Counted from the first letter of the stretch, positions 10,998 through 27,479 are shown. The stretch: 64,000 nucleotides of DNA from Candidatus Micrarchaeota archaeon (GCA_043821365.1 JBDRCX010000006.1:320001-384000), one strand, 5' to 3'. The notes: generated by a model not told the origin, from the letters alone. Numbers and translations: made by a program.

Positions 10998-11145
10998 GTC
11001 TGTCTATCATTTACTATGTTTAAATTTTTTTGTTAAATTTTAGTCAGTATAGCATTATTACTGGGATCAAGCCCCCTGAACTAAATAAATCTGATTTATA
11101 AACATATTGTTTCAAATAGTATAAAGTAGTGTGGGAGGATTAGTT

Positions 11146-14100
11146 ATGGGTGGGCCAAGATTAACTAGATCAGAAGACAAACATTTATATTCTCATTCTG
11201 AGAGGTGTAGACCAGGCCATGGAAGCAATGTTTTCAGGCGTTATTTTGGTATTGGATTAACATCCTTATTGTTATTTGGAGGTATTAATATGGCTACTAC
11301 TGTTAGACCGGCTGCGGCTCAGGAACATAAAGAGGATCAACGTATAACTCAAGCTAAAGAACAATTGGCAGGAGCAATTTCTGCAATTGGCAGTTCTTTT
11401 TCTCAATCTAGAGATTTTGGCATTCCAAATCCATCAGTAAATGCTTCAAGTAGATTAGTTAGTGGTGAAGAAGGTTTAGTTACTCTTCTTGCTCAACATA
11501 ATGGAAGATTAAGACAAATGACTGGTGGGGTAGATGTTTTCCCAGTTACTGGTTCTACCTCTGAAGAACAATTTGTGTCATTAAATGCTTGGCTTGGAAA
11601 AGAGCACAAAGCATGTCCTGATTGTACTGTTTCACCTGCTATGGAAGGACGAACAGCAACAAGTCCTATTGATCAGGCAACACTTGATGTTATTAATACA
11701 AGAATTCAAAGCGCACTGACTACTCCAGGTGCATTTTCTGCTGCAGCTGCTGTAGCTGCTGTAACTACAGTTCATAGACCAGCAGGAGAAGAAACCCGTA
11801 CAGAAAGATTACCTGCAGACATTGTACCAAAACCAATTATTAGTGATGCGTTATATACTGGAGTTGTTTCAGAGCTTGATTTGATTATTGAAAATCCAGA
11901 ATCAACTCCAGTGGGACATGAAGCTTTACGCCACAGAGAAAAACTTGCAACACTTAAAGCTGGTGGCGAAGCAAAACAAGATGATTTACGTGTTGCTTAC
12001 AGGGCAGCCAAAGTTTTTTCAGTTGCGCATATTGATGCATCAACACGACTTAGGGATGATGCATTGGCTGCAGAAAGAGAAGCCGCAAGACTAGAAGCAG
12101 AGAGAGCAAGAGTTCCACCTGCAGAAAGAGAAGCACAAGCGTATCATCATTCTATGGTTACAAAGGCACTAGAAATAGCATCACAATCAACTGCTATCTT
12201 GGGTTCTTATAAGCCAACTGAACCAGGTGTCCGTGCTGCTTATGATAAAATGACTGAAAGACTTAATGCGCTTTCACAACAATGTACTTCTTTACAAGGA
12301 AAACCAAAAGTAACATTTGAAGAAGCAAATGAAGTTTATACTCAAACATTGTTGGCTGCGGATGCAGTTGCAACAATGGATATTTTGATGAAATATGCAA
12401 GTGTAAATGGATTGGCGGGTCTTTCTGGCCGTCCAGCTACTGAATTCTGGAAATCCTATACTGGTCTTGTAAGTTTAATTGGAAAAGAAGGCACAACCGA
12501 ATCACAATATGATGATGCTGTTGCTGGTCTGTATTCTGAGGTTTCAGGTAAATTAACAACAACTATTTCTTCTGACATTCGAAGTTCTGTAGAAGCAATT
12601 GCTCGTCTTCGTATAAGAAAAGCAGGGTTCTATTTTGAGCGTGCCAGAGTTACAATGACAGCAGGAGAAACACTATCATTGGAATCTACTCAACTTATGT
12701 TGGATCAAGCAATGCGCGCAGTTGAAGATTCCGGAGCTACTGTTCCAAATGAAATGTTGGAATTATCAAAACAATGGCGTGCATCATCTACTGATCCAGT
12801 GCTTTTGTACTCACTTGCACATAGTTTAATTTCAATTCGTGAAGCAGAATTATGGACATCTGATAAAACAGCATCTATGCGTCCATCTACAACTGATCCA
12901 GCCACTCTTCAAGCTGCAAGAACAAGAGTTGAACTTGCAAAACAAGCATTTATGTGGAACTTTAGCAAACCACAATTAGATCCAACTTATTATCTAAACA
13001 TGTCAACTGCATTGGCAGATGATGCAATCCACATGGTTGTTCCTGCACTAAGATTTACTGAAGGTTCTGCAGGAGTTAAATCTGGTTTTGAATATAATAA
13101 TACTGGTCCAGGAATGCCAAATCAATTTGATTCTGCAATGTTAGTTGAAAGAAGCCATCTTGTGGTATTAGCTGCAGTTAGAGATCTTGATCTAAGAAGT
13201 GCAATACAACTTCATTCAGCAAAACAAGATACACGTGGTGACTATGCTCTGCCAGGTTTATTCTCAAGATTAACAACAGCAGAACGATTAGCAACAGGGT
13301 TGCCAACATTTGATCAATCAAAAGGCAGAGTTTATCTTCTTGGTGCTGATCCAGACTTGAATATGAGTGGTGCTGTTTTACATGATGCACCTGGGTTTGA
13401 TAGATATGGTTTAGGTTATTCAGTTGCAAGAAGGGAAGCAGTTCTCACTGCCAATGCAAGTTCACCATATCTACTGAGGAGTTCTGGGTTTTTAAGTGAA
13501 CTTAATATCACAACTGGTCAATTTGTTAGTGGCCAGATAACAGGACAACAATTACTCACAACTGTAGCTGATAAAAGAATTGCAGAATTAGAAGCAAGGC
13601 TTGGCACAGTTCTTGAAAGAAATATAACCATCGCAGAACTTCCTAATCGTAATCCAGGTGAGGAAAGAGTTTACTATGTTACTAGAGCTAAAGAAGCACT
13701 TGAACAGGCCAGAACATTAAGAGGCCAGACTGATCTAGTATCATTACAAAGATCAATTGAAGTTGCTGAACTTGGACTTGAAGGTCTTTCAACTGCTCAC
13801 CTCACAGGGTTAGTTCCAGAACAGTCATTGGAATTTCCATGCGAAGTTACAGCTCTTGATACAAGGAGACTGGGTCCTGCTATCTATATGATTGCACATG
13901 CAGATGTTTCTGTAAACGTAGATGGTTCAGTCCAATCATTGGCTGAATATGAAAGAGTTGAAGGAAAACAAAGACTCCTTTACAGCTGGCAATTTTATAC
14001 AAACCCTGGTTTTGATAGTAACTATTACCTCGTTAATCCAAAATATGGAGCTGAACGTGAACCTGAATTCATTGGTAGGGTTGTTCGTGGAATGGAATTT

Positions 14101-14400
14101 AGTGATGGGACAACAGGTGATGCTGTTGTTGCTATAAGACAAATTGAGAATCGTTGGGTTGATGTAACTGCAGCAGATGGAACAACCCTAGTTATGTACA
14201 GATTACAAAAAACTCCTGAACCTTCACCAGGAACAATAGCTGCTGAAAGTTTCAGAGCTGTTGATGAGGGAGAAGGCAGCATCATGGATGTTTTAGATGC
14301 GGTTTCAGTTAAAACTGCAATTCCAGATGGAGTTGTTAGATTCAAAGGATTTGAAAGTTCTAAGACCAATGCAGGTCTTGTGATTACAAAAATTAAATAA
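11146..14400 (+). CDS. Large exported protein (helical N-half, beta-rich middle)
   Basis: GGAGG SD; long basic n-region with FRRYF, hydrophobic core and AAA|QE cleavage-like site; no recognised family. Confidence 0.8.
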   Translation: MGGPRLTRSEDKHLYSHSERCRPGHGSNVFRRYFGIGLTSLLLFGGINMATTVRPAAAQEHKEDQRITQAKEQLAGAISAIGSSFSQSRDFGIPNPSVNASSRLVSGEEGLVTLLAQHNGRLRQMTGGVDVFPVTGSTSEEQFVSLNAWLGKEHKACPDCTVSPAMEGRTATSPIDQATLDVINTRIQSALTTPGAFSAAAAVAAVTTVHRPAGEETRTERLPADIVPKPIISDALYTGVVSELDLIIENPESTPVGHEALRHREKLATLKAGGEAKQDDLRVAYRAAKVFSVAHIDASTRLRDDALAAEREAARLEAERARVPPAEREAQAYHHSMVTKALEIASQSTAILGSYKPTEPGVRAAYDKMTERLNALSQQCTSLQGKPKVTFEEANEVYTQTLLAADAVATMDILMKYASVNGLAGLSGRPATEFWKSYTGLVSLIGKEGTTESQYDDAVAGLYSEVSGKLTTTISSDIRSSVEAIARLRIRKAGFYFERARVTMTAGETLSLESTQLMLDQAMRAVEDSGATVPNEMLELSKQWRASSTDPVLLYSLAHSLISIREAELWTSDKTASMRPSTTDPATLQAARTRVELAKQAFMWNFSKPQLDPTYYLNMSTALADDAIHMVVPALRFTEGSAGVKSGFEYNNTGPGMPNQFDSAMLVERSHLVVLAAVRDLDLRSAIQLHSAKQDTRGDYALPGLFSRLTTAERLATGLPTFDQSKGRVYLLGADPDLNMSGAVLHDAPGFDRYGLGYSVARREAVLTANASSPYLLRSSGFLSELNITTGQFVSGQITGQQLLTTVADKRIAELEARLGTVLERNITIAELPNRNPGEERVYYVTRAKEALEQARTLRGQTDLVSLQRSIEVAELGLEGLSTAHLTGLVPEQSLEFPCEVTALDTRRLGPAIYMIAHADVSVNVDGSVQSLAEYERVEGKQRLLYSWQFYTNPGFDSNYYLVNPKYGAEREPEFIGRVVRGMEFSDGTTGDAVVAIRQIENRWVDVTAADGTTLVMYRLQKTPEPSPGTIAAESFRAVDEGEGSIMDVLDAVSVKTAIPDGVVRFKGFESSKTNAGLVITKIK

Positions 14401-14410
14401 GGGTGGAAAA

Positions 14411-14596
14411 ATGAGATGTACAAGAGAATCGGAGGGAAGGAAACCTGAATCTGTTAGTCAACGAAATCCAGCAATTAAATTTGCAGCTGCAGCAGCACGC
14501 GGATTGGTTTTAACAACTGGATTCGGTTTAACTCTTGTTGCGTCACCGGGACAATTTATTAATTCTGGCGTCCCAATACCATTAGCATTCACGTGA
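14411..14596 (+). CDS. 61-aa signal-peptide-like/membrane peptide
   Basis: GGGTGG SD-like sequence; charged N-half then hydrophobic stretch; fits tightly between two large genes. Confidence 0.55.
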   Translation: MRCTRESEGRKPESVSQRNPAIKFAAAAARGLVLTTGFGLTLVASPGQFINSGVPIPLAFT

Positions 14597-14607
14597 GGTG
14601 ACTAAAT

Positions 14608-16842
14608 ATGGCACAAACGCAACAAGATAGGGGTATGGTTAGTGGAAACAGTGATTTTAGCGCTATAACTAGCCAGTGGAAACATTCTACTTCAAGGAGT
14701 GAAGATCCTGGAATTGTATTAAATGGTGGGTCAATTTTTGCACGAGCAGCAAACTTTGTAGTTATACATGACATGATTAAATTTTTAGAAGGCCCAAGGC
14801 CAAAAGAAGGAACCCCTGAAAGGGCAACCTATGATGAAGCAATTCAAGGAATAGGTGGTGGGGAAAAAGAAACAACAATTTGGATGTTGAAGAAAATGCA
14901 CGGTGTCATCCTAATTGATCTTTCTAGAGCTGTTCATTCAAGACAGGATCTTGCAGATGAAAATCTTGCCGAATCAACCGAAAGAGTTTTGTTAGATCTT
15001 TCTAAAGGAGTTGGTACTCTTGATCAAAATTATGCTGAATATCTTCAAACTGATGTTTATCAATCAATAGCTAGATTATATGAGAGTTTAAGTAGAACAT
15101 CAAGTGCTGAAGATGCGCCATTAGCTAGACGATCACTTGGTGTTGCAGAATCTCCAGTTTATAGAAGATACCCAGATACAGATCAAAGAAGAGTTGTGTT
15201 CGAAAGAGTTTCTGAACAACAACCTGGATTTTATGGGAATGCTAGTTTATCTGATTCACTTGTTTCTGCCTTTGGTGGTAATCAGGATCAAGCAAACCAA
15301 TTTTTAGAATCTGTTCTCAAAGGCTACAAAGCAATTGCACTGGGTGAAAGCACTTCTCAAGCAGTTAGTGGTCTTCAAACAGCATTAGCCAATCTAAAAG
15401 CATCTGGTTCAAGGATTGCAGATGATCCTGCATTTAAAGCAGCTGAACAAGCACTTTCAAACGGAGATCTGAAAGGAGCGTTACAGAGTCTTTATGATAT
15501 TCGTCCACTTCAAGGTTTGTGGCAGAACTTAGACAAGTTTACTGTCGTTACGATGGACAATCTTGCTTTTACATATCTTGATGTTAGGGGTATGGTTGAA
15601 ATAAAAATCAGAGGAAAAGAAGGAGGCCCTACTCCTGAAGAATTATTTGAGAGGGCAAGAGCACAACTAAACCCAACAAGCACTGAATTTTTTGGTTTCA
15701 CGAAAATACGTTTTGGTGCCCATTACAAACTAAATCAATACTATGGAAGAGCTGATACTTATGAACTAAATCCATCAACTGCAGAGTTGACTAGGGTTTC
15801 ATCCGATCCTTTGAGTGGTCTTGGGCATGTTATAACTGCTCCATTTGAAGCCTACATGTCAGGTATAGTGAAAGGTATGCCATATCATATTGTACTTTAT
15901 ACAGAGCCAGGAGTTGAAACATGGAAACTTGATGAAGCAAGTATCAGAACAATTGATTCTTCGGGACAAACAGCCATCCAAAAAATAAAACTCGATGATA
16001 CTAATTTCCATTTAGGTCCAACTGGTCTTGAATTCCAAATGCCGGGTACTGGCGAAAGAAGGCTATTCAGCGTTCAAAGTGTTGGTCTTGAATTCACTGG
16101 TTCAAGTGCAAGATCTCATTTTGTTGATCAAGTGATTTTGTATACTAGACTCGAAGGTACTGCATATGAATCAGGGGGGTTTGCTATTATGGGAAGAGCC
16201 AGAGTTAGTGCGGCACTGAATGTAGGAAGTACAATTGAAGAAAAGCCATCTGGAGCATTTACAATAAGAGGAGAGCCAGTTAACTTCGTCATTAGTAATA
16301 ACGACGGTACTTTCCTTGTTGGTCCAGTTGCTGATGCAACCTACGAAATTACTGGAAGTGAAGCATATAGACACATGGTCCATTGGGGTGCAGGTGCACA
16401 CTTTGCATGGGTTGAGCCAAAATATGGAGTTCAACTAGGTGCAGGATTTGGTTATGGTAGAGTTGGCGAATTGGGTCCATCTCCACATGGTGGATTTACT
16501 GGTTCATTGAATGTTACTGTGCCATTTGGTGGAGGTAGAACTGCTCCAGCCAAAGCAGTAGAAGCACGAGATATCCCAGCAATCTATGGAACTGCAGTTG
16601 AATTTGCAGCACAACCAGAAGCATTGGTTAATGGCCCAGCTGGCCAAGCTCTTGCGCAACAAACAGCAGCAATGATCGATAGAAATCTTGCTGATTCAAG
16701 TGATGCAGAGCGTATACGTACTGATGTTGACTACAAGGCTGCAATAATTGCATTAAGAGAAGGTGATCTTGAGTCAGGAGTAACTTTGTTAAGAAAAGTT
16801 GCTGAAAAATACCCGACTGTTTTCACCAAAGCAGGTGAATGA
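14608..16842 (+). CDS. Hypothetical protein with TPR-like helices and a beta-barrel-like C-terminal region
   Basis: GGTGA SD; amphipathic strands such as MVHWGAGAHFAW, VQLGAGFGYGRV and FTGSLNVTVPF; TPR-like YKAAIIALREGDLESGVTLLRKVAEKYP. Confidence 0.75.
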   Translation: MAQTQQDRGMVSGNSDFSAITSQWKHSTSRSEDPGIVLNGGSIFARAANFVVIHDMIKFLEGPRPKEGTPERATYDEAIQGIGGGEKETTIWMLKKMHGVILIDLSRAVHSRQDLADENLAESTERVLLDLSKGVGTLDQNYAEYLQTDVYQSIARLYESLSRTSSAEDAPLARRSLGVAESPVYRRYPDTDQRRVVFERVSEQQPGFYGNASLSDSLVSAFGGNQDQANQFLESVLKGYKAIALGESTSQAVSGLQTALANLKASGSRIADDPAFKAAEQALSNGDLKGALQSLYDIRPLQGLWQNLDKFTVVTMDNLAFTYLDVRGMVEIKIRGKEGGPTPEELFERARAQLNPTSTEFFGFTKIRFGAHYKLNQYYGRADTYELNPSTAELTRVSSDPLSGLGHVITAPFEAYMSGIVKGMPYHIVLYTEPGVETWKLDEASIRTIDSSGQTAIQKIKLDDTNFHLGPTGLEFQMPGTGERRLFSVQSVGLEFTGSSARSHFVDQVILYTRLEGTAYESGGFAIMGRARVSAALNVGSTIEEKPSGAFTIRGEPVNFVISNNDGTFLVGPVADATYEITGSEAYRHMVHWGAGAHFAWVEPKYGVQLGAGFGYGRVGELGPSPHGGFTGSLNVTVPFGGGRTAPAKAVEARDIPAIYGTAVEFAAQPEALVNGPAGQALAQQTAAMIDRNLADSSDAERIRTDVDYKAAIIALREGDLESGVTLLRKVAEKYPTVFTKAGE

Positions 16843-16843
16843 T

Positions 16844-19843
16844 ATGAAATATTTTTTTGCTTTTCTTTTATTAAGTTCTGTTCTGTTTGCAACTAATGTT
16901 AATGCAGATTTTGAACAGCAAAGTTCTGGTTATCAAACAGATACTAGTATGCAATTTACAACTAGTTTTGTTCTGTCTCTTCATTCAGGTGAAGTAATTA
17001 GTGGTGACCCAAATGATCTTGAGACTGGTGATTCAGTTTGTACTGGCGCAAGATTAACAATAACCCCAACTGTAAATGCAAAATGGGCAACTAGTGGAGG
17101 ATCTCCAGATTTTGATGCGGATGCAATTTTCCCAGTTTGCGATCCTGCATATGAACCATACTGTCCATCAACCTCAAGTCTTGGTTCTGTTTCAAATAAC
17201 CGTAATATAAATTGGTTGTCTTCTTCTAGACGCAGTTATTTTGTATCACATTTTTCAAGTCCAAATGATTATCTTTATGGTTATTCAGATCATTCTAATC
17301 TTGCTGAACTTCAAAGTGTTTATAATGAACTTTCACCATTTTCATCCCAGCCTGTGACTTACCATGTTGAATTTGGCGGTCCAACTTACAGTAACAAAAG
17401 AGGGGAAGTTGGAGTTTATTGCGATGGTACTCTAAGATTAAGTGGCGGTGGTGGATCTACTACTAGAGCATCACCATTTTCTACTTCAAGCTGGACATCA
17501 AGTACAATTAATACTCCTGGAAGCTATGATTTCAAAACACAAATAGAAGGCATTGATTGTTTTGGAGTTGTTCTAAAATATCCTACAAATCTAAATGATG
17601 GTCATTCAGAATTTTTCTATATGAACTTTTATACTGACAATCTTCCAAGTATAACAAGTCCAGCTGCTGTTTCAACAGTTACAATTGATATTGAGGAAGA
17701 CGGTGGTGAATGTTCAATTGCTCTTGGAACACAACCAATAGAAATAACCTATGGCAGTCAAATTGGAGATCTACAAAATTTCATGGTTAAAGCACAAATA
17801 AGGAATACTGGTGCAGATGCAATTAACCTTACTGGTTCAATTGTCAGTTCTAATGCTGATTATGTTGCACTTGCATTCCCAACAGCTAGCTGTGGTGTTC
17901 TTGGAATACCCCCAGCATTGTGTCCTGCTTCAAATGGATTTGAAACTTCTCTTTCTGCAGGTGTCTCTAGGTATGTTTATATCTGGTTAGTTGATACAGA
18001 TGCTGCTGCAAGCGGTGGTACAACCTTAACAGTTTATGCTGAGACTTCCTCTCCTATGTGTGGGGATGCAGAAGAATGTTCAGTCGATATTGATTTAACA
18101 GGGCCAATAACATGTGAAGTAGTTCCTGATCCTATGGATGTTCCTGAGAATTATGAACAAAGATTCAATGTTACTTGTACTGACCTTGACCTTGATCCAA
18201 TTGCATGTTCAGGAACTGATTGGGCATGGGTACCTGGAACTTTCGGTACAATTTCTACACATACAAATACCTATGTGCTTGCCACTCCAACAGCAGCAGT
18301 TGGTTCAACTGGTGAAATTGAATATACCTCTGATGATGTGGCGGTTTGCAGTGCTCAGGTTACAGTTTTACCTGATATTGACACTCCAGTTGAATGTACA
18401 ATAGTTCCACCAAATGCAGATGTTGGTCAAATGGAACTTGCACAATTCAATGTTACTTGTATTAATTCACTAGGCGATGAGATTCCATGTGCCAGTACTA
18501 ATTGGTACTGGGAAATGGGATTCTCCGGATATTTTGTCACTCAAACTGAGGAAGATGCAACTGTTTATTCTGATGAAGCAGTTGGTTCAACTGGCGAGCT
18601 TTTCTTTGAACCTTCAATTTATGCAATTTGTTCTGCAAATATGACTATAATCTCACCAACATATGTGTGTGTTTTTGATCCTGATGATGTTATTGTAAAT
18701 ATGACTGATTCACAACACTTCAATTTCACCTGCTATGAAAATCTTGCTGAGACAGACCCTGATGATGCAGAATATAATCTAATCAATACTCTTACTGGTG
18801 TTTTATCAAATGATGATATTCATGGTGTTGATTATACTGCTCCTGCGCTTGGTACTGAAGGAGATGTTGAAGGAATTGGTTATTTTGATACAGGCACTCA
18901 TATAATTGGTGCAGTTGATTGGGCGCATGTACTTGTTCCAGATGAAAATTCACCAACTGATTGTACAATCACTCCTGCTGTTTATTCAATGGGCCCATAC
19001 GAATGGGCAACATTCGAGGTTGAATGTACAAATTTCTTTGGGGTGCCAGTTGCCTGCGTTGGTAATAATTGGTATTGGGGAGATGGACTTACTGGGGGTT
19101 TTATATCAGCAACAAATACTGAAGCTGAAGCATATTCAACATCTTCAGTTGGTTCAACTGGTAAACTTTATTATGCATCAATTGATGCCCTTTGTTTCTC
19201 AGATGTAACCTTGATTGCACCAACATATGTCTGCGATCTTACTCCAGACAGTGTTGTGTTAGCATATTCAGACAGTCAGCACTTTGACTTTGCATGTACT
19301 GTAGCTGGAGTCGCAACTGCTCCTGATGACTCTGATTATCAGCTTGTTGATGGTTTAACAGGAAGCCTGTCAAACCCAGCAATTAATGGTGTTGATTATG
19401 ATGCACCTGCTGTTGACAGCCAAGGTAATGTGCTTGCAGTTGGAACATTCAATGCTGCTCCAGCACCATTGGGTGGTGCAGTTGATCTTTCATTTGTAAG
19501 GGTTCAAAACGACACAGAAGAATGCGTTGGTGATGACTGCAATCCAGGGGACAGTGATGATTGTAGAATTCTTGCACCAAGCCCATGGTTTGTTTCAGAA
19601 GGAACTAGTGCCTGGGTTGGAATCATGTGTGGTGTTGATGGTGACGAAGTTTGCTCAAGTGTTGTTTGGAGCCTAGGTCCACCAACTGCTGGTTGGGTTC
19701 ATAACGGTAACAATCATGGAACATGGTATACCATCACAGGGAATCCAGGACAAACAGGAACACTTTATGCAGAAGTTGGCACTGATGCAGAATGTTACAG
19801 AGATTTTGAAATCGTTGAGCAAGACTGCGATGATTTATCTTAA
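16844..19843 (+). CDS. Secreted acidic Cys-rich protein with about six tandem Ig-like repeats (adhesin/surface protein)
   Basis: GGTGA SD; Sec signal MKYFFAFLLLSSVLFATNVNA; repeated C-x-x-x-P...F-x-x-x-C...GSTG units. Confidence 0.8.
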   Translation: MKYFFAFLLLSSVLFATNVNADFEQQSSGYQTDTSMQFTTSFVLSLHSGEVISGDPNDLETGDSVCTGARLTITPTVNAKWATSGGSPDFDADAIFPVCDPAYEPYCPSTSSLGSVSNNRNINWLSSSRRSYFVSHFSSPNDYLYGYSDHSNLAELQSVYNELSPFSSQPVTYHVEFGGPTYSNKRGEVGVYCDGTLRLSGGGGSTTRASPFSTSSWTSSTINTPGSYDFKTQIEGIDCFGVVLKYPTNLNDGHSEFFYMNFYTDNLPSITSPAAVSTVTIDIEEDGGECSIALGTQPIEITYGSQIGDLQNFMVKAQIRNTGADAINLTGSIVSSNADYVALAFPTASCGVLGIPPALCPASNGFETSLSAGVSRYVYIWLVDTDAAASGGTTLTVYAETSSPMCGDAEECSVDIDLTGPITCEVVPDPMDVPENYEQRFNVTCTDLDLDPIACSGTDWAWVPGTFGTISTHTNTYVLATPTAAVGSTGEIEYTSDDVAVCSAQVTVLPDIDTPVECTIVPPNADVGQMELAQFNVTCINSLGDEIPCASTNWYWEMGFSGYFVTQTEEDATVYSDEAVGSTGELFFEPSIYAICSANMTIISPTYVCVFDPDDVIVNMTDSQHFNFTCYENLAETDPDDAEYNLINTLTGVLSNDDIHGVDYTAPALGTEGDVEGIGYFDTGTHIIGAVDWAHVLVPDENSPTDCTITPAVYSMGPYEWATFEVECTNFFGVPVACVGNNWYWGDGLTGGFISATNTEAEAYSTSSVGSTGKLYYASIDALCFSDVTLIAPTYVCDLTPDSVVLAYSDSQHFDFACTVAGVATAPDDSDYQLVDGLTGSLSNPAINGVDYDAPAVDSQGNVLAVGTFNAAPAPLGGAVDLSFVRVQNDTEECVGDDCNPGDSDDCRILAPSPWFVSEGTSAWVGIMCGVDGDEVCSSVVWSLGPPTAGWVHNGNNHGTWYTITGNPGQTGTLYAEVGTDAECYRDFEIVEQDCDDLS

Positions 19844-19909: not shown

Positions 19910-19937
19910 GGGGTCTAAGGGGGCGTAGCCCCCTTAA
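19910..19937. repeat. REP-like GGGGT-footed GC hairpin between convergent operons (possible terminator)
   Basis: GGGGT-CT-AAGGGGGC-GTA-GCCCCCTT-AA. Confidence 0.6.
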
Positions 19938-19946
19938 TTAAACAAA

Positions 19947-22511
19947 CTACATTGATTTAAACTCAACTATCATCTTTTCGAGTTCATCACTTGTCTGATA
20001 AATTATTGAGCTGCTCTCAGCTTCCATCTTTATAATTAGGGGAACTGTTGAAGCTGTTGAATTCATAATGTTCTGAAAATGACTCTTGTCACTGTTGTTC
20101 TTGAATACAATTATTGTAATCCCACTTTTTATTGTTGTTAATAATCTAGTGAGGAAGTCTTCTACCTTGATTCCTTTTTCGTAAATATGAATATACATCT
20201 GCTGTCCCATCACAGTTAGTACTGTGTCTGAATTCTTTGCCTCCCCAATAAGTGTAAATGGGATTGCGTTATTCACACAAATATCTCTTATTTTTCTCAT
20301 CATTGCAAGATATTCAATTGTTCTTTTGCTTTGTCCTTCCCAGTTTACCTTACCATAATATCCAAGTGATTCTTTTACCAAATCTCTTTTTTCCATCTCC
20401 TGAAGAATAAATTCAACATTATAGTCTGTTATGTATATTGGTTTACCTTGGTGTAGCACTTGTTTGAACGCGTTTTTTATCTCTCCTGGTGTTAGTGGGG
20501 TGTTCTCCCAGCGATAATTCTCATTAACCTTGTCAAATAAATTCAAAATAACATCTGCTTGGAGAGGTATTTTAGTTTTTGTTATTGGGGGGAAATCTGG
20601 TATATCTAATGAATAATATGTTTCTTCTTGCCTTGCAAATACCATACCAACTCCCATAATTCCTCCTGTAAATATTATAACAAGCCATACAACTGGATTT
20701 TCTAGAGGAGTTGACATTCTTGGGTGGGGGATATCAACTACTGTCGTAAGCTTTCCTGATGTAAATTCAAATTTATGTGTTTCCCCTATTGGCAATCTAT
20801 CATTTCCAGTATAAGAACCAACATTCACATCCAAATATTCACTATTACTAAAACTATATTCACCAAATCTACCATCGTCGACCTTAACTGTTATTTGGCT
20901 TAGTTTAAGTGCTTCATCATCCATAGTTACGTAAAATCTATATACTGAAGGTTTATCTTTTACCCCGCCAATGTATGTTACTTCTGGGGTTATAACCTTC
21001 ATGTATGTTTGTGCATATTCCTTTCCATTGTCATCTTCAAGATTTACTAGGTATTCGCCTTTCTCCACATAGACTCTAATGTCAAATGATCTATCTGCCT
21101 GGACATTAACATTTCCCTGTGGGAGGGTCTGCATGTCAGTTCCATTAATATCTTCGATAATTATTGACATGCTTGGCTGGGATGGAACAGGTTCACGAAG
21201 AAGTGCATTTATTCTTACTGGACTATCAGAAATATTCGTTGGTACGACGTTTCCACTTGATTCTATGAACATTTGATTTGGTGTTTGCAATTCAATTCTC
21301 TTGAATAACATCTCTTTTATCGGTGTGGATACTTTTTCCGAGTATCCGGTAAATTCAACCTTCACTGTCGTGTTGCTTTCTTGGAAAGTTTCTGAGAAAA
21401 AATATGATGTTCCATTGTAACCATCTTGGTTCTCGAAATAATATGTTTTGGTGTTTGAACTTGGGCTTATCCATGCTGTTTTGAATATGACATTTGAAAC
21501 ATCATTTGCTGCGCTAGTATAATTCCCCCTCCATCCCCCATCAAGGGTTTGTGGGAAAAATAGGAAAGCACCATCCCCTTTTTTTATTACACTAATGCCC
21601 CCATATAGGGTACTTGCTGTCCACTTGCTCCTTGCATTTACTAAATAAAGAGGCTGATAAATATGCAGTTCCTGAGTTGGGCTTATTGGACTTGTTTCAT
21701 CAAATGTAACTGGTAGGCTACTTACAACGCTTGTTGGTGTATCAGTTACCAATGTACCGTCTAATATTTTTGTGAATTTCTGTCCTAAGTATATAACTAC
21801 TATGCCTCGGTCTGCTAACTTATCCATAGATACTAAACTGTCAATACCTAACATTTCCTTTGGTATTACTCCGCTTGGTACAATAACTATTCCACCCTGC
21901 GGCAGTGTTTCTAATTGTCTTATCGTTATTTCATTTAGCATAAGATTTCTTTTCTTCAGTTCCGTCCTAAGGCTATATAAAAAGTCAGGATAGCTATCTG
22001 CCTCAAGTTTTTCACTATTTAAAATAAAAATTTCAGTAGGTATTTTCTGGTTGAATGTTGTTATGTTGATCGTATAATTGTCTATGTTACTTGTTTTGTA
22101 ATCTATCACTACCCCTGCGATGTGGGTGGGCGTGTTCTTCTGCCCAGACATCAATATAGATCCGTCTATTAACATATTTTCTATTGTGGGTCTCTCCATC
22201 TCTTCCTGCGTTAGCCCTGTTCCCGGAGCAAGAACCTGTGTTGTGAGGTATATCCACCCAACTGCAAGTATGATAATCGCTATTAAGGCAAATGCCCCAA
22301 AAATCCCAAAACTAAATCCTCCTTTTGGAGGTTCTGGCAATGCCCTAGTCTCTTTTTTCTCTTGTTTTTTTGGTGGTTTTATAAATGTTTTAATTGCGTC
22401 TTTGATCTTTTCTATTGGGGGACGTTCTTTTATTTTGTAGTTCACAGTCTGGTGGTATTTTTTTCTGATGTCGAAGTTGTAAATTTTTTTCCTTATTCTT
22501 GTTTCTGGCAT
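19947..22511 (-). CDS. Large two-TM membrane protein (extracellular domain plus cytoplasmic winged-helix-like tail), VirB4-operon member
   Basis: TM1 FSFGIFGAFALIAIIILAVGWIYL and TM2 VVWLVIIFTGGIMGVGMVFA; about 520-aa beta-rich segment between them. Confidence 0.75.
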   Translation of the reverse strand: MPETRIRKKIYNFDIRKKYHQTVNYKIKERPPIEKIKDAIKTFIKPPKKQEKKETRALPEPPKGGFSFGIFGAFALIAIIILAVGWIYLTTQVLAPGTGLTQEEMERPTIENMLIDGSILMSGQKNTPTHIAGVVIDYKTSNIDNYTINITTFNQKIPTEIFILNSEKLEADSYPDFLYSLRTELKKRNLMLNEITIRQLETLPQGGIVIVPSGVIPKEMLGIDSLVSMDKLADRGIVVIYLGQKFTKILDGTLVTDTPTSVVSSLPVTFDETSPISPTQELHIYQPLYLVNARSKWTASTLYGGISVIKKGDGAFLFFPQTLDGGWRGNYTSAANDVSNVIFKTAWISPSSNTKTYYFENQDGYNGTSYFFSETFQESNTTVKVEFTGYSEKVSTPIKEMLFKRIELQTPNQMFIESSGNVVPTNISDSPVRINALLREPVPSQPSMSIIIEDINGTDMQTLPQGNVNVQADRSFDIRVYVEKGEYLVNLEDDNGKEYAQTYMKVITPEVTYIGGVKDKPSVYRFYVTMDDEALKLSQITVKVDDGRFGEYSFSNSEYLDVNVGSYTGNDRLPIGETHKFEFTSGKLTTVVDIPHPRMSTPLENPVVWLVIIFTGGIMGVGMVFARQEETYYSLDIPDFPPITKTKIPLQADVILNLFDKVNENYRWENTPLTPGEIKNAFKQVLHQGKPIYITDYNVEFILQEMEKRDLVKESLGYYGKVNWEGQSKRTIEYLAMMRKIRDICVNNAIPFTLIGEAKNSDTVLTVMGQQMYIHIYEKGIKVEDFLTRLLTTIKSGITIIVFKNNSDKSHFQNIMNSTASTVPLIIKMEAESSSIIYQTSDELEKMIVEFKSM

Positions 22512-22529
22512 TTATCTCCCACCATCTAA

Positions 22530-23291
22530 TTACCGTACAATCTCCAAATATCCTTCGTTTACAAGTTTATTCAGTAGTTCTTCTACGCGTGCATTTGAAA
22601 CACTATATAATTTTGTGAACTCACCGATGTTTATGGATCCATTATGTTCTGCAATCCATTCTTGTAATTTTGCTTTGAGTGCATCTTCGCTCAAGCCCTC
22701 AAGCTCCTTAACTCTAATGGAAAGCTCGTCATTTTTGCTTTTTAAGTCATAGTTTTGTGTTGTCAATGCTTGATTTTGTTCATTTAGTCTGTTTATTTTT
22801 TTCTTGTAATCATCAACTTCTTTTTTAAGAGAATCATAGGAAGTGAAAAGTTTGGTGTAATCCATTGTTACTGAACCAGTCAATTCCTTTACTGCATTTT
22901 CAATAAGTTGGTATAATGTCTTTTGATCTACTTCGTAAGTCCCTTCAACCAAACTCAAAATGTTAAGTAAATATCTAAGAATGTCCATACGTCTCTTGTT
23001 CGGTCCAATTTCAGGTGGGATGGTATATAATATGTCTAATCCATCTTCTTTTAGTTTAATGATGGAAAATAAGTATGGATTTTTGTTTATGTCCCTGCTT
23101 TCAACATAAAGTATGTTTAGGACATCTTTCTCTGGTGCTATTTCAAGGAAGGATATTGAACGTAACAATCCGCCCAGGTCTTTTAGTTTTCCTTTTTTTA
23201 ACTTTCCTTTTATTTTGAATCCATCTACCTGTGGTGGATGGGTTTCTTCTTTTGCACCTTGTGGTTTTGGTTTGATTGGTAGATCAGGCAT
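22530..23291 (-). CDS. Coiled-coil protein with C-terminal winged helix, VirB4-operon member
   Basis: Heptad region LKKEVDDYKKKINRLNEQNQAL...; C-terminal INIGEFTKLYSVSNARVEELLNKLVNEGYL. Confidence 0.75.
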   Translation of the reverse strand: MPDLPIKPKPQGAKEETHPPQVDGFKIKGKLKKGKLKDLGGLLRSISFLEIAPEKDVLNILYVESRDINKNPYLFSIIKLKEDGLDILYTIPPEIGPNKRRMDILRYLLNILSLVEGTYEVDQKTLYQLIENAVKELTGSVTMDYTKLFTSYDSLKKEVDDYKKKINRLNEQNQALTTQNYDLKSKNDELSIRVKELEGLSEDALKAKLQEWIAEHNGSINIGEFTKLYSVSNARVEELLNKLVNEGYLEIVR

Positions 23292-23296
23292 TTATC

Positions 23297-23719
23297 TCAC
23301 CTTTTTTTCTTCGTTCGTTTTTTTACTGGCCTTTTCTTTTTTACCTGTTTTAGTACTAGTGGTTCTTTGAAAACTGCTGGGGTGTATTTGAATATTGGAA
23401 GTGCAATAACTGCTCCTGCAAGTATAAATGCAGAAATAATAGGCCACAAATCTAACCGTCCTGATAAGACTATGGAAAGTATTATTACTACAAGTATAAG
23501 TCCTGCAAGTACGGTTGCAATCATCATGCTTTTTTCAAATGATTTTCTTCTTTCAGAATGGTTCTGAAGATCTTTGGCACAAACATACAGCTCATTCATT
23601 TGAGCTACGCCGAATTTTCTTTTTACTGCCCTTATGGTTGTTATTATCCTGTCCTCTTTTATCGGCAAGGCTTCTTTACCATCCACATTTGTTTGACAAA
23701 TTACACAAACCTTTCCCAT
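23297..23719 (-). CDS. Small Zn-finger-like plus two-TM protein, VirB4-operon member
   Basis: CVIC...YVCAKD then two hydrophobic helices and a basic tail. Confidence 0.7.
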   Translation of the reverse strand: MGKVCVICQTNVDGKEALPIKEDRIITTIRAVKRKFGVAQMNELYVCAKDLQNHSERRKSFEKSMMIATVLAGLILVVIILSIVLSGRLDLWPIISAFILAGAVIALPIFKYTPAVFKEPLVLKQVKKKRPVKKRTKKKR

Positions 23720-23723
23720 ATAA

Positions 23724-25304
23724 TCACTCTAATGTAACCTGACTTACATCTCTTCCAATACCGCCGCTTTTCTTCAAGTCAACTTTACCAAATATGTTTA
23801 TCACTGTCATATCATCTATTCCTGCATCTTTGAGGAATTCATTTATGTTTCGACGTGCTATACCACTTCTCTCAAGCATAATAACAAATGATACAACATC
23901 CATACGTCTGCTGTTCTTTTCAAATGATTTTGCAAAATCTTCGACCTTATCATCTGCCAATCCGAATTGACGTAATCTTCTTCTGAAATCTTCTTTTTGG
24001 AATGAAACACTTCTAGACACGGATACATCCCTCCTTTGTTTTTCTGTTAAAACTTCCGTCATATCCAAGAAAAATTCTCTACTTGGTTCTTCCCCTTCTA
24101 TCTTATCTATGAGGAAAGTTGATGCATATGGTACTTGTGAAGTTAAGGACAGGTTGACGGCACACTGTCCAACACCTAATCTGCTTATTTCATCACGCAT
24201 ATAATTGCTGAAATTTAATGATCCCTGAAGATAATCAAGGAACTTTTCAAATTTGACTTTAAGCATAAATGTGGTTCCTACGTTGCTGAATATTGCCTCA
24301 CTTATATCTGTTGGGTTCTGCGACGCTATAATCATAGCGAAATTATATTTTCTACCTTCTCTGACTATCATGACTGCGTCGCTGTTTTCATCCTTTCCTA
24401 TTTTCCAAGCCTCATCCAAAACCACCAACAACCTAAGTCCTTTGTGGTGCGCCCAACCTTCAAGTCTCATTTTTTCTTTTATGAACTGGAGTATGGTAAG
24501 GGCAGCCAGTGCTCTTGCAGTTTCATCAGGAAGACCAGACAAATCAAGGTCAACAAGACCCGAACTTACAAGTTGGTCGAGCTTCACTGTACTTTGTTGT
24601 GCGAAGAAATCTTCACCTGGTTTTGTAAATTGTTTAAGTCTGTAAATTGCATTTTCAAGTTCTGCTGGAAATTCATATGACCCTACCTGTGCCTGTTCAG
24701 TTAATATTCTTACAACATCTTTGAGTGTTGGTGCTATGAGTGGTTTACCTAGTTCATCTTTCTGTTCATGAGCATCCATTCTGAATTTCCCTTCGATATA
24801 TACTTTTTCTATGGCCTGCTCGGTCAGCCTTCTTTGTTCCGGATAATTTCCAATATCAGTAAGAAGTTCAAGTGTTCTCATAACTTGTTTTATACGATCG
24901 TATGGTTTCATTCCACCAAGGTCAAGTAGGTTGAGGTAGGATCCTCTACCAAGTGCAACTACCTTACCATCAGTTTGTCTTACCCAATCTCTATATTCTC
25001 CTGCCCAGTCGATTATAAGTGCATTACTATTCCAAACAAATGCGGTTCTAAGCAAAAATGTCTTGATAAAATAACTTTTACCTGCACCAGATATCCCAAC
25101 AACTGCTATGTGTGGATTGGCTATGCCCTGGTAACTCCAGTAAAACGGTACATTGAATATTTTCGTTCTTCCTATATAGATAGAATCTGTTGGGTCTGGG
25201 AAAAGGACATCCATCGGGGGTTCTGGAGGCCTGACAAGAATGTTTCTTCGTGATACAGCACTATTTGGAACTTTGGATAGATACAGTTTTCCCCCTATTG
25301 GCAT
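23724..25304 (-). CDS. VirB4/HerA/TraG-like (DUF87) P-loop ATPase
   Basis: PHIAVVGISGAGKS (Walker A), LLVVLDEAWKI (Walker B), REGRKYNFAMIIASQNPTD; about 100-aa extra C-terminal domain. Confidence 0.9.
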   Translation of the reverse strand: MPIGGKLYLSKVPNSAVSRRNILVRPPEPPMDVLFPDPTDSIYIGRTKIFNVPFYWSYQGIANPHIAVVGISGAGKSYFIKTFLLRTAFVWNSNALIIDWAGEYRDWVRQTDGKVVALGRGSYLNLLDLGGMKPYDRIKQVMRTLELLTDIGNYPEQRRLTEQAIEKVYIEGKFRMDAHEQKDELGKPLIAPTLKDVVRILTEQAQVGSYEFPAELENAIYRLKQFTKPGEDFFAQQSTVKLDQLVSSGLVDLDLSGLPDETARALAALTILQFIKEKMRLEGWAHHKGLRLLVVLDEAWKIGKDENSDAVMIVREGRKYNFAMIIASQNPTDISEAIFSNVGTTFMLKVKFEKFLDYLQGSLNFSNYMRDEISRLGVGQCAVNLSLTSQVPYASTFLIDKIEGEEPSREFFLDMTEVLTEKQRRDVSVSRSVSFQKEDFRRRLRQFGLADDKVEDFAKSFEKNSRRMDVVSFVIMLERSGIARRNINEFLKDAGIDDMTVINIFGKVDLKKSGGIGRDVSQVTLE

Positions 25305-26119
25305 CAGACCACACTCTCTTCAAGTTCCTGAGGAGTTATTGGGAAAAAGCGGTCCCATTCAAAACACTTCATCATTTCGTCTCCAGTAAGTAAGCTTACC
25401 TCGACATTCAAAGCATTTTCAAGGTTACCTCTAAGTTCTTTTGCTTGTGAACGTACCACAGACATTGCTGCATCTTTACTTATACCAACTGCTGTTGTTT
25501 GTGCATATGCAATAATGCCCATCGGTTTAACTCCCTTAACTAATCTAGCAAGTTCATTGTCTTCTTTTTGAACTTCTCTCTCAAATTTGTCCATTTTCAG
25601 TACATCTGGCTGTGCCTTGTCTCTTTCACGTGCAAGTTTTAGCTGTGCTTCAGCTCTTCTTGTTTCAATTGATTTCCTTTTTGCTGTTACATCTTCTACG
25701 TAAAGCATATATGAGATTTTTGTGACGTATTTTATGTTTGAAATTGCACGCTCAAAAAATTGACTATAAATTAAATTTTCCTCTTGTGTTTTTTCTGTTG
25801 CGGATTCAAAAATTTTCATTCCCAGAAAAGCAGATGCATAGTAAACTCCCCCGACGTTTTTTACAATAACATCTTGACTCGGAGGGATTTCGTATCCGCT
25901 ATCAGTCATCATTACTATGTTTGTTCTGGTCGTTACTAATGGTATCATTATGTATCCATATCTCCAAAACAACACTCCAAGAAGTGCTCCAGTTCCAGCG
26001 GCCAATCCACCTAATATGGAGAGTATTCCACCTCCTCCAATTAATGCAAAGAGTGCTCCTAAAACTCCTACTGCTATAGCACCTATAGTATATGTTTTAG
26101 ATCCACTTACTGCCGTCAT
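25304..26119 (-). CDS. Membrane protein resembling a VirB3/VirB4 N-terminal module
   Basis: Gly-rich TM hairpin, then alpha/beta domain with coiled-coil insert; 1-nt overlap with the ATPase start. Confidence 0.65.
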   Translation of the reverse strand: MTAVSGSKTYTIGAIAVGVLGALFALIGGGGILSILGGLAAGTGALLGVLFWRYGYIMIPLVTTRTNIVMMTDSGYEIPPSQDVIVKNVGGVYYASAFLGMKIFESATEKTQEENLIYSQFFERAISNIKYVTKISYMLYVEDVTAKRKSIETRRAEAQLKLARERDKAQPDVLKMDKFEREVQKEDNELARLVKGVKPMGIIAYAQTTAVGISKDAAMSVVRSQAKELRGNLENALNVEVSLLTGDEMMKCFEWDRFFPITPQELEESVV

Positions 26120-26171
26120 ATATTACCTCTTAATTCTAATTAGCTGCGAAAGTATATAAAGACTGGCAACA

Positions 26172-27479
26172 TCATTCAACAGCTTCTTCTACAATTCTTT
26201 TTGCACTACCAATATATGTAGAATATTTGAATATTTCGTCTGCTTCATTTGCTCCAAGCAATCCACTTTCCAAAACAAGCTCTTTCAGGTGTCTTTTTTT
26301 TGCAAATGCCTCATGAGCCATGTTTCTTACTTTCTCATGTGCATCCTGTCTTCCCATATCCTTCTTCTCAACCAAATATATCATCAATCTCTCTGCTAGA
26401 ATAAGGCCGTTTGTCAATTCTAGATTTTTCTTTATGTTATCAGGATAGAAAACAAGTCCACTCACTATCTTTGTTATTTCATGGGCCATATAATCAACAG
26501 TGACAAAACTCTCACTGAAAATAGCTCGTTCATTTGCACTGTTAGTAAGATCTCTTTCATGTTCTAGGGCGTTATTCTCAATAGCAGTTAGCACATTTGC
26601 ACGAACAAGGCGTGCAAGGGAGCAGATCCGTTCACTTTTATGCGGGTTTCTTTTCTGAGGCATTGTGGATGAACCAACTTGTTTTGCACTGAATGCTTCT
26701 GAAACTTCAAGAATCTCTGTTCTTTGGAGGTTTCTTATCTCCTTGGCTATTTTTTCAAATAATGATGCAGTTGTGGCAAGTATAAATACTATCTCTGCAT
26801 GACGATCTCTCTGGATGACCTGATTTGTAATTTTTGCACTTTCTAATCCAAGTTCTGCCATGACTATCTTCTGTATCTTTTGCCCATCCTTACCGAAAGT
26901 TGCCATTGTTCCAACTGCGCCGGACATCTTACCAACGGCTATTCTTTTTTTTGCTTCTTTCAATCTCTCTAAATTACGTCTTAATTCTTGATAATAAAGT
27001 GCAAATTTCATGCCGTATGTTGTTGGTACTGCATGCTGTCCATGTGTTCTCCCCACACAAACGGTTTCTTTATGTTGCAATGCTAGTTTTTTCAATTCTT
27101 TACCAAAGTTTTCCAATTGTTTTTCAATTATTTCCATTGCATCAAGGAAAATCAATGCAGTTGCTGTATCTTCAATGTCATAACTAGTAGCACCAAGATG
27201 AACATACTTACCAGCATCTCCTGCTTGTTCTGTAAGTGCTTTTACCATTGCCATAAGGTCATGTTGTATCTGAGATTCTATCTCCACAACTCGTTCATGT
27301 TTTACTTTTTTCATTGCCTGTTCTATTTTTCCAGGAGCATCTTTTGGTATGTTCCCAAGTTGTGCATGTGCTTTTGCTAAAGCCACCTCTACACGCATCC
27401 ATTTGTTTATTTTATTCTGGTCCTCAAAAACACTATTCATCTCTGTCCTGTATCTTTCTTCAAATGGAGAAATTGCCAT
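26172..27479 (-). CDS. purB: Adenylosuccinate lyase
   Basis: HLGATSYDI, GRTHGQHA and GSSTMPQKRNP fumarase-superfamily signature. Confidence 0.96.
   Translation of the reverse strand: MAISPFEERYRTEMNSVFEDQNKINKWMRVEVALAKAHAQLGNIPKDAPGKIEQAMKKVKHERVVEIESQIQHDLMAMVKALTEQAGDAGKYVHLGATSYDIEDTATALIFLDAMEIIEKQLENFGKELKKLALQHKETVCVGRTHGQHAVPTTYGMKFALYYQELRRNLERLKEAKKRIAVGKMSGAVGTMATFGKDGQKIQKIVMAELGLESAKITNQVIQRDRHAEIVFILATTASLFEKIAKEIRNLQRTEILEVSEAFSAKQVGSSTMPQKRNPHKSERICSLARLVRANVLTAIENNALEHERDLTNSANERAIFSESFVTVDYMAHEITKIVSGLVFYPDNIKKNLELTNGLILAERLMIYLVEKKDMGRQDAHEKVRNMAHEAFAKKRHLKELVLESGLLGANEADEIFKYSTYIGSAKRIVEEAVE

Follow-up and report, generated by a model that had tools for sequence, protein, structure and literature searches.

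A five-gene operon in a Micrarchaeota chromosome

The window analysed here is a 64-kb stretch (G000:C6:320001-384000) of a 1.2-Mb Micrarchaeota genome assembly, which is 87% complete, so that absences from the genome are provisional. Reading of the sequence confirmed five co-oriented minus-strand open reading frames (ORFs), named g1 to g5, which fill window positions 19947-26119 next to purB. The first two genes overlap by 1 nt, and the remaining ones are separated, in order, by 4, 5 and 18 nt. A preliminary description of this DNA had reported five tightly packed genes with most of the domains listed in Table 1 and purB as their neighbour, all of which is borne out by the ORFs, an AlphaFold2 (AF2) model, Pfam matches and hydropathy. 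It had also placed the operon in the chromosomal core with no relaxase, integrase, NurA or PilB/TadC gene beside it, and Pfam/NCBIfam-type scans of the locus proteins found no relaxase, integrase, NurA or PilB-type family, nor other mobile-element genes, among the scanned neighbours. The GC content of the operon is ordinary relative to the window. The operon very probably encodes a machine derived from a type IV secretion system (T4SS) with a VirB4-type ATPase, whose N-terminal and motor domains are encoded by two separate genes, g1 and g2.

A VirB4 motor split between g1 and g2

The ATPase g2 matches the Pfam families DUF87, AAA_10 and TraG P-loop. Its Walker A (GISGAGKS) and Walker B (DEAW) motifs are followed by the motifs REGRKY and SQNPTD, and no catalytic residue varies among 25 orthologues and paralogues. 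The top NCBIfam models are CedB (6.5e-21) and CD1110 VirB4 (5.5e-19, residues 41-379 against model positions 393-721 of 752), while the HerA models reach 1e-11; all NCBIfam matches of g2 are far under the cut-offs. When the g2 profile was compared with solved structures, VirB4 (4ag5) and DptH aligned across the whole motor. The same profile matched a single archaeal VirB4 sequence (L135), which has a CagE_TrbE_VirB N-terminal domain and is encoded after a PrgI-domain protein, with E 8.5e-22, compared to E 1.3e-14 for the genome's own HerA, likewise taken as a single sequence. An hhalign comparison with a profile of DPANN VirB3-VirB4 fusions gave 99.6% and E 1.5e-23 over 314 columns. Outside Micrarchaeota, the nearest relatives of g2 bear CagE_TrbE_VirB and either adjoin PrgI or occur as fusions with it. 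As only ~40 residues lie ahead of the ATPase fold, g2 has no N-terminal domain of its own.

The preliminary description had called g2 a VirB4/HerA-type ATPase within a VirB4-like operon, and had named a grouping with HerA helicases or with known archaellum or pilus systems as an outcome that would count against it. The scores above agree with the VirB4 assignment, and no such grouping was found. Some of the matches would nonetheless suggest a helicase of the HerA type that serves in DNA repair or in defence against phages and has incidental membrane partners: g2 shares its ATPase superfamily (DUF87) with HerA-NurA, it matches models of DUF87/HerA, and HerA matches among PDB chains and in PADLOC score 1e-17 to 4e-19. 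This explanation is largely refuted and we consider it very improbable. The HerA matches are local (~residues 245-380) whereas the VirB4 matches span the motor, and g2 has neither a HAS barrel (Pfam) nor a NurA neighbour. The genome's canonical HerA, with a HAS barrel, lies at ~481.5-483 kb, ~140 kb away (L003), and NurA is found at G000:C6:113.4 kb (L056), apart from both the operon and HerA. PADLOC returned only generic ATPase matches for g2 (mad8, HerA and DndH at ~1e-17), no match for g1, g3 or g5, and a weak, chance-level coiled-coil match for g4, so that the four partners have no defence family beyond that one match. Furthermore, vertical inheritance across the phylum (see below) is unlike that of defence islands.

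The missing N-terminal domain is supplied by g1. The AF2 model of g1 (predicted local distance difference test score, pLDDT, of 84) has Gly-rich hydrophobic helices at residues 7-27 and 32-66, and then an alpha/beta domain with a helical hairpin. In a Foldseek search of the PDB, the best 14 matches to this model were all to TrwK, the VirB4 of R388 (E 1.6e-3, probability 1.0), and the next class of structures reached 0.38. VIA-align placed g1 residues 74-260 on TrwK residues 221-376, which is the stretch of the N-terminal domain directly before the motor, with a Z score of 11.5 and a root-mean-square deviation of 3.6 Å over 146 residues. Unrelated structures gave 58-residue helical matches with Z scores of at most 8.1. 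The VirB4-N-like domain that had been proposed for g1 is therefore seen in the TrwK fold match. At the sequence level, hhalign aligned g1 with the DPANN VirB3-VirB4 fusions (81%, E 1.2e-5) over 50 columns that come right after the hairpin in both, and a search of the g1 profile against PDB sequences found only coiled-coil or chance matches. Because the sequence evidence is modest, the claim for g1 is carried by the structural evidence, which predicts that its soluble part has the fold of a VirB4 N-terminal domain.

Together, g1 and g2 constitute one VirB4-type ATPase that is split between its N-terminal and motor domains: both elements by which a VirB4 is recognised, an N-terminal domain and a Walker A/B motor, are present and spread over the two genes. 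The membrane hairpin of g1 is like VirB3/PrgI in its position and topology, and probably stands in for the one that in other systems comes from a separate or fused VirB3/PrgI. This hairpin is placed as in the PrgI-VirB4 fusions L136 and P0312, and PF12666 (PrgI) finds nothing in the g1 orthologues or in the genome.

In three of the sampled families (designated f7, f8 and f9; families are numbered in this way throughout), a separate ORF encodes the last ~100 residues of g2. This stand-alone ORF of ~100 aa suggests that the C-terminal helical repeat of ~107 aa is a separable module. The domain had scattered weak matches to small helical domains (IF2_N, UBA), and its profile search against PDB sequences returned only coiled-coil or chance matches. 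A reading of the repeats as a DNA-binding domain of the helix-hairpin-helix type was rejected, as no such family scored.

Table 1. Genes and other features of the operon, and the arrays of the polytopic family. Positions are those of the window unless a contig position (C6) is given.
Feature	Position	Strand	Description
g1	25304-26119	-	271 aa; N-terminal membrane hairpin and cytoplasmic domain predicted to have the VirB4 N-terminal-domain fold
g2	23724-25304	-	526 aa; VirB4-type C-terminal motor ATPase
g2 C-terminal helical-repeat domain	23727-24047	-	~107 aa; split ORFs in 11 loci
g3	23297-23719	-	140 aa; zinc ribbon, two-helix membrane hairpin and basic tail
g4	22530-23291	-	253 aa; N-terminal alpha/beta region, coiled coil and C-terminal winged helix
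g5	19947-22511	-	854 aa; two transmembrane segments around a large ectodomain, cytoplasmic tail
TATA-like box TTTATATA	26153-26160	-	~37 nt 5' of the g1 start codon; read from sequence
GAGGT	26125-26129	-	just ahead of the g1 start
GC hairpin GGGGGC-TAC-GCCCCC	19919-19933	-	14 nt past the g5 stop codon; read from sequence
Polytopic arrays of six (L146, L147)	C6:494216-501826 and C6:594648-602343

Partner proteins encoded by g3, g4 and g5

An alignment of 19 orthologues shows that g3 begins with a zinc ribbon (CxxC...C), which has four cysteines in most lineages and is degenerate in a few. According to the alignment and hydropathy, this is followed by a two-helix hairpin with a conserved Y-x-P and often by a basic tail. 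No family in Pfam or NCBIfam matches g3. The zinc ribbon is cytoplasmic. The topology of g3 would be opposite to that expected of a VirB2-like pilin.

g4 is a cytoplasmic protein with a coiled coil in the middle, and its family is common to the paralogous system described below. Of 21 orthologues, 14 show an EAP30/ESCRT-II match in the C-terminal winged helix (best 5.2e-6), and the g4 profile matches the CdvB winged helix (2xvc) with E 0.0023. Beyond the winged helix, comparison of this profile with PDB sequences gave coiled-coil or chance matches. Relatives of g4 were found only in Micrarchaeota/Microcaldota, and in the ESM Atlas only in Micrarchaeota clusters.

In g5, transmembrane (TM) segments at residues ~66-84 and 603-621 flank an ectodomain of ~510 aa, and the N-terminus is basic and cytoplasmic (hydropathy and an AF2 model with pLDDT 81; the ESM Atlas model, with pLDDT 0.53, was too poor for use). 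The ectodomain consists, in order, of a beta-sandwich, a GATase1-like alpha/beta domain (159-346), and two immunoglobulin (Ig)/macroglobulin-like sandwiches (~409-598). The alpha/beta domain resembles a non-catalytic domain of glycoside hydrolase family 42 (GH42) enzymes (VIA Z 10-11.3). Foldseek matched the Ig-like region to the macroglobulin (MG) domains of alpha2-macroglobulin/C3 with E 8e-9, and VIA gave a Z score of ~9 for residues 409-509. The cytoplasmic tail, which is the best conserved part of g5, has a winged helix at ~649-722 (VIA Z 8.1, a middling score) and then an alpha/beta domain; its fold is barely probed because the Ig-like domains crowd the structural match lists. Neither g5 as a whole nor its tail matched a sequence family in a Pfam scan or in a profile search of PDB sequences, and hhalign found no match between g5 and the two-TM ectodomain protein of an Iainarchaeum T4SS locus.

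A paralogue of g5 with 635 aa and the same layout of TM segment, ectodomain, TM segment and tail is encoded at G000:C6:196922-198829 (L137 6922-8829, minus strand). It adjoins pheS and two other proteins of this TM-ectodomain-TM type, away from both ATPase operons, and similar second copies of g5 are found in many genomes of families f1-f6.

The operon is conserved across most of Micrarchaeota

Conservation was examined in 121 genomes across the phylum, and synteny in 19 other Micrarchaeota loci from 11 sampled families. Gene order is kept in all 19 loci, far beyond what chance would give: each has g2-g3-g4-g5 in sequence, and g1 is also visible in 17 of them by a simple phmmer search; a lack of conserved gene order was the second outcome that the preliminary description had set against itself. 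The ATPase is present in 114 of the 121 genomes, with at least 50% identity across the class, and the seven genomes that lack a match belong to families f10, f11 and f14. A profile of the g5 cytoplasmic tail finds 111 of the 121 genomes, in the same families as the ATPase. One unpublished genome adds a single count to each of these two tallies. Five sampled families (f10, f11, f14, f16 and f17; 10 genomes, 89-97% complete) have no g5-tail match at all, and a weak ATPase match occurs in only three of these genomes. The identities of the ATPase drop with taxonomic distance, from genus to family, order and class. In the three genomes with an adjacent purB, the ATPase scores 1.55-1.73 bits per residue compared to 1.14-1.49 for purB, which indicates that the ATPase is under stronger constraint than this housekeeping enzyme. 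Over most of the phylum, the gene set has passed down by vertical descent.

ATPases of the VirB4 type are usually found on mobile elements, and L136, the closest outgroup locus, has genes for a resolvase and a DNA methylase; both observations would be in keeping with the operon being left over from a plasmid or an integrated conjugative element. We regard such an origin for the operon as largely refuted and most improbable. Gene order is conserved in the 19 loci, the set occurs in most of the phylum, the ATPase identities track taxonomic distance, and the GC content is ordinary; no integrase or relaxase was found in the locus scans and no coupling protein in the genome. The absence of a relaxase-type family refers to library scans of the locus proteins, as a whole-genome relaxase search was not made. 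Archaeal relaxases are poorly defined.

Conservation at this level, with at least 50% identity across the class, resembles that of housekeeping genes and might instead point to a DNA pump or membrane remodeller for chromosome segregation or division, as proposed for members of the FtsK/HerA superfamily, and perhaps linked to ESCRT through g4. The resemblance of the g4 C-terminus to ESCRT-II and CdvB winged helices is in line with this, as are coiled-coil matches of g4 to ZapB and DivIC, though these are driven by composition. However, an extracellular g5 stalk of ~510 residues has no obvious role in segregation, the lack of g5-tail matches in five sampled families, with weak ATPase matches in only three of their genomes, is not what one would expect of a factor essential for division, and the nearest relatives of g2 are T4SS ATPases. 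A role in segregation or division is therefore improbable.

Close relatives of the ATPase number in the hundreds, and all of the named ones are labelled Micrarchaeota. A scan of one genome per GTDB species identified 482 ATPase relatives. Of the best 80, 78 (34-86% identity) have Micrarchaeota-type labels or are plainly mislabelled close relatives; the complete Ca. Fermentimicrarchaeum limneticum genome is among them, as are several Micrarchaeaceae. The remaining two come from other archaea and have only 24% identity. The g1 family comprises 275 clusters (50% identity) among 1.84 billion representative proteins. Among its best 150 members, nearly all full-length relatives have ~240-280 aa, and none has the length of a g1-g2 fusion. 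The sampled named members are Micrarchaeota, plus one labelled 'Marsarchaeota' (contigs up to 0.94 Mb). Judging by these searches, the five-gene set and the g1 family are confined to Micrarchaeota. The proposal of a DPANN apparatus thus stands in so far as a T4SS-derived machine is concerned and needs to be narrowed in its range: the system is not DPANN-wide, as it occurs in Micrarchaeota only and other DPANN lineages carry a different, more canonical VirB3-VirB4 fusion.

There is also variation between lineages. g1 is tandemly duplicated in families f7, f8, f9 and f12, and one might speculate that the two paralogues take non-equivalent places in the motor assembly.

A shorter paralogous system and an expanded polytopic family

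The same genome contains a shorter paralogous system at G000:C6:141269-147128 (locus L024 7028-12129). Its genes encode, in order, a 368-aa polytopic protein, g1', an esterase, ATPase', g4' and a very basic 91-aa protein, followed by purD (L024 5436-6737). ATPase' is 45% identical to g2. The esterase, of the BD-FAE type, lies between g1' and ATPase' in this genome only; the insertion is absent from the other genomes that we checked. The core g1'-ATPase'-g4' recurs in nine of ten other genomes, and the tenth locus ends at the end of a contig. The polytopic gene was recognised in five of these ten.

The five-gene operon itself has no polytopic gene, and PF04610 and PF19590 (TrbL, TrbL_3) find nothing significant in the genome. 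In all nine loci from families f7-f9, however, three or four tandem polytopic paralogues are located directly upstream of g1 on the same strand, and these are homologous to the copy in the paralogous system (hhalign 96.5-97.7%). The family has 13 copies in this 1.2-Mb genome, namely the copy of the paralogous system and two tandem arrays of six (Table 1). Given its position upstream of g1 in f7-f9 and its homology to the copy in the paralogous system, the polytopic family is likely to be a component that the operon uses in trans. It had no match to single outgroup polytopic proteins, and its profile search against PDB sequences gave coiled-coil or chance matches only. One of the arrays (array A) is followed by a gene for a 1326-aa single-TM protein.

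Comparison with known VirB4 systems

The Ced system of Sulfolobales (CedA, CedA1, CedA2, CedB) and the Ted system of Thermoproteales (TedA, TedB, TedC) (PMC9905601, PMC11868833) are, like the operon described here, chromosomal and relaxase-free archaeal systems that have a VirB4-like ATPase and small membrane partners, and CedB is the best NCBIfam match of g2. Ced, and by homology Ted, are the only such systems of known function, and they import DNA (PMC9905601). The Micrarchaeota operon differs in having a split motor and in scoring 74.6 bits against the CedB model (NF041017), for which the cut-off is 700. None of its other proteins matches any NCBIfam model, no CedA/VirB6-like or CedA1/VirB2-like protein was recognisable, and g3, g4 and g5 have no Ced/Ted counterpart. 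DNA import has been demonstrated for Ced; for the Micrarchaeota operon it is a candidate function.

The g1 domain superposes on TrwK of the bacterial VirB3/VirB4 pair (TrwM/TrwK of R388; PrgI/PrgJ in monoderm MPF-FATA systems), g2 aligns over the whole motor, and VirB3-VirB4 fusions have a membrane hairpin ahead of the N-terminal domain as g1 does. In bacterial T4SS the split separates VirB3 from VirB4, whereas here VirB4 itself is divided, with its N-terminal domain in one gene and its C-terminal domain in the next. In addition, g1 escapes Pfam's VirB3, PrgI and VirB4 N-terminal models, g2 has an extra helical-repeat domain, and no VirB6, VirB8, VirB1 or VirD4 was found for the Micrarchaeota operon. 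The closest ecological parallel is found in Patescibacteria (the candidate phyla radiation, CPR), where ultra-small host-dependent cells have a phylum-wide, chromosomal and relaxase-poor VirB4 system (PMC12102498), which is reported to be essential for epibiotic growth. The CPR system retains recognisable homologues of VirB3, VirB6, VirB8, a pilin and the coupling protein and has an unsplit VirB4, unlike Micrarchaeota, in which the partners are unrecognisable.

Outside the phylum, the closest relatives of g2 are DPANN VirB3-VirB4 fusions of ~1000 aa, from genomes labelled Woesearchaeota, Nanoarchaeota and Aenigmatarchaeota. These proteins are fused rather than split, have another C-terminal domain, lack g3, g4 and g5 homologues, and are preceded by a polytopic protein of ~680 aa with TrbL_3 matches in some members. 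The fusions (P0284-P0403; L136 4567-7677) are widespread under these labels, and the contigs that carry them often measure from hundreds of kilobases up to 1.5 Mb. In the consensus, their conserved C-terminal stretch shows an invariant D...E-x-E...K pattern resembling a PD-(D/E)xK nuclease motif, with no family match.

A candidate transfer machine

Taken together, our results favour the view that the operon is the resident, chromosomally fixed core of a T4SS-derived membrane machine specific to Micrarchaeota; we consider this probable as a statement of its general mode of action, whatever the cargo. In such a machine, g1 and g2 would assemble into a membrane-docked hexameric motor. The g3 hairpin, the two helices of g5 and members of the polytopic family would form a membrane conduit, and the g5 ectodomain would cross the S-layer as a stalk of Ig-like domains. 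A coiled-coil dimer of g4 could connect the motor to the cytoplasmic tail of g5, or to a substrate, through its protein-binding winged helix. ATP hydrolysis would then push a macromolecule across the envelope.

Several observations weigh against this interpretation. Among solved structures, HerA-type chains score as well as or better than VirB4 with g2, but only over ~residues 245-380. For g1, the Pfam models of the VirB4 N-terminus (PF03135) and PrgI (PF12666) give no match, scans of the orthologues yielded nothing consistent, and the profile match with the DPANN fusions is as short as 50 columns. The genome contains no VirB6, VirB2 or VirB3 family that is recognisable in profile searches, and no coupling protein, as PF02534 was blank in a search whose control was positive in six reference genomes. 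A profile comparison of the polytopic family with the VirB6-like polytopic proteins encoded ahead of the DPANN fusions reached a probability of only 11% (E 0.0027), on one conserved motif. Finally, the winged helix of g4 is of a protein-binding rather than a DNA-binding type.

The cargo and direction of the machine can be suggested by analogy with related systems. Exchange of DNA, proteins or nutrients with hosts, as put forward in the preliminary description, may be its role. If the operon does encode a T4SS-derived VirB4 machine, DNA import would be the leading candidate for its job, with a likelihood somewhat short of even, because Ced and Ted, the chromosomal relaxase-free archaeal VirB4 systems, import DNA. 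Weak hints of a nucleic acid substrate, namely the basic tails on g3 and g5 and the highly basic 91-aa protein encoded after the paralogous system, lend this some support. A fuller reading, which we put forward tentatively, is that the operon and the expanded polytopic family form a conduit by which macromolecules, either DNA that provides nucleotides or genes or some other cargo, are taken from hosts. Such a conduit would be the archaeal equivalent of the Patescibacteria T4SS, with a split VirB4 and otherwise new parts, and the polytopic paralogues might tune its specificity for host or cargo.

A serious rival, although we think it unlikely, is that the same VirB4-type motor exports proteins or builds a pilus-like or adhesive stalk for attachment to hosts and does not move DNA. 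The best-established role of bacterial VirB4 is in pilus biogenesis and effector export. The Ig/macroglobulin-like stalk of g5 is typical of surface or adhesion proteins, g4 ends in a winged helix of the protein-binding type, and the operon has no nuclease, relaxase or recognisable DNA-binding domain. A related proposal has been made for nanohaloarchaeal giant proteins with VirB4-like domains (PMC10266531). On the other hand, no pilin-like gene was found: the VirB2-like pilin model (PF18895) had only a chance-level match, with E 0.14, inside a 548-aa frame, and small hairpin ORFs near orthologous operons are doubtful (see below). There are also no conserved effector candidates beside the operon. 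The giant proteins encoded downstream in this window do not adjoin it at any of the other 19 loci.

It is an open question how DPANN archaea acquire whatever they cannot make themselves, and we know of no dedicated transfer machine described for Micrarchaeota. The operon, whose ancestry lies in machinery for moving DNA and proteins from cell to cell and which is kept across most of the phylum, is a concrete candidate for such a machine. Our literature search found no published description of it, and the paper on the Ca. Micrarchaeum harzensis co-culture does not mention it. Orthologues occur in genomes labelled Micrarchaeaceae, a family with cultured co-cultures (Ca. Micrarchaeum harzensis), so the idea is testable. 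Evidently, the two domains of a VirB4 motor can come apart and be built up again alongside unrelated partners, which widens the notion of what a T4SS descendant is and shows why standard T4SS profile searches miss such systems. New here are the predicted g5 fold, the way in which the operon compares with the DPANN fusions, the tandem polytopic copies upstream of the operon in other families, the number and layout of the polytopic genes in this genome, and the shorter paralogous system.

Transcription signals and neighbouring genes

purB (26172-27479) is the upstream neighbour of the operon and has the same direction. The spacer of 52 nt between purB and g1 contains the TATA-like box TTTATATA, which, judged by the archaeal TATA consensus, is probably the operon's own promoter. 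The GC hairpin behind g5 likely marks the end of the operon or is a copy of the genome's hairpin modules. With a TATA-like box in front and a hairpin behind, the five genes look like a transcription unit of their own.

Three large proteins of 1089, 744 and 1014 aa are encoded on the plus strand at 11131-19843 of the window and converge on the operon. None of them has a significant Pfam family, all matches being sub-threshold. They were rejected as parts of the system on the basis of their distribution, with none beside the operon in the 19 other loci, and are probably unrelated to it. In loci of families f7 and f8 (L029-L038), short ORFs that resemble one another abound in several frames 1-3 kb past g5, and some of them have two hydrophobic segments. 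This stretch could be repetitive, or a gene there could have been read wrongly. The small hairpin ORFs within it were considered as pilins and rejected, as they look like spurious overlapping frames; a real small membrane protein might nevertheless lie there.

Both VirB4-like systems are flanked by co-directional purine genes, with purB upstream of the five-gene operon and purD downstream of the paralogous system. This adjacency is seen here and in several f1 and f6 genomes; it may be fortuitous, or it may point to some connection with the supply of nucleotides.

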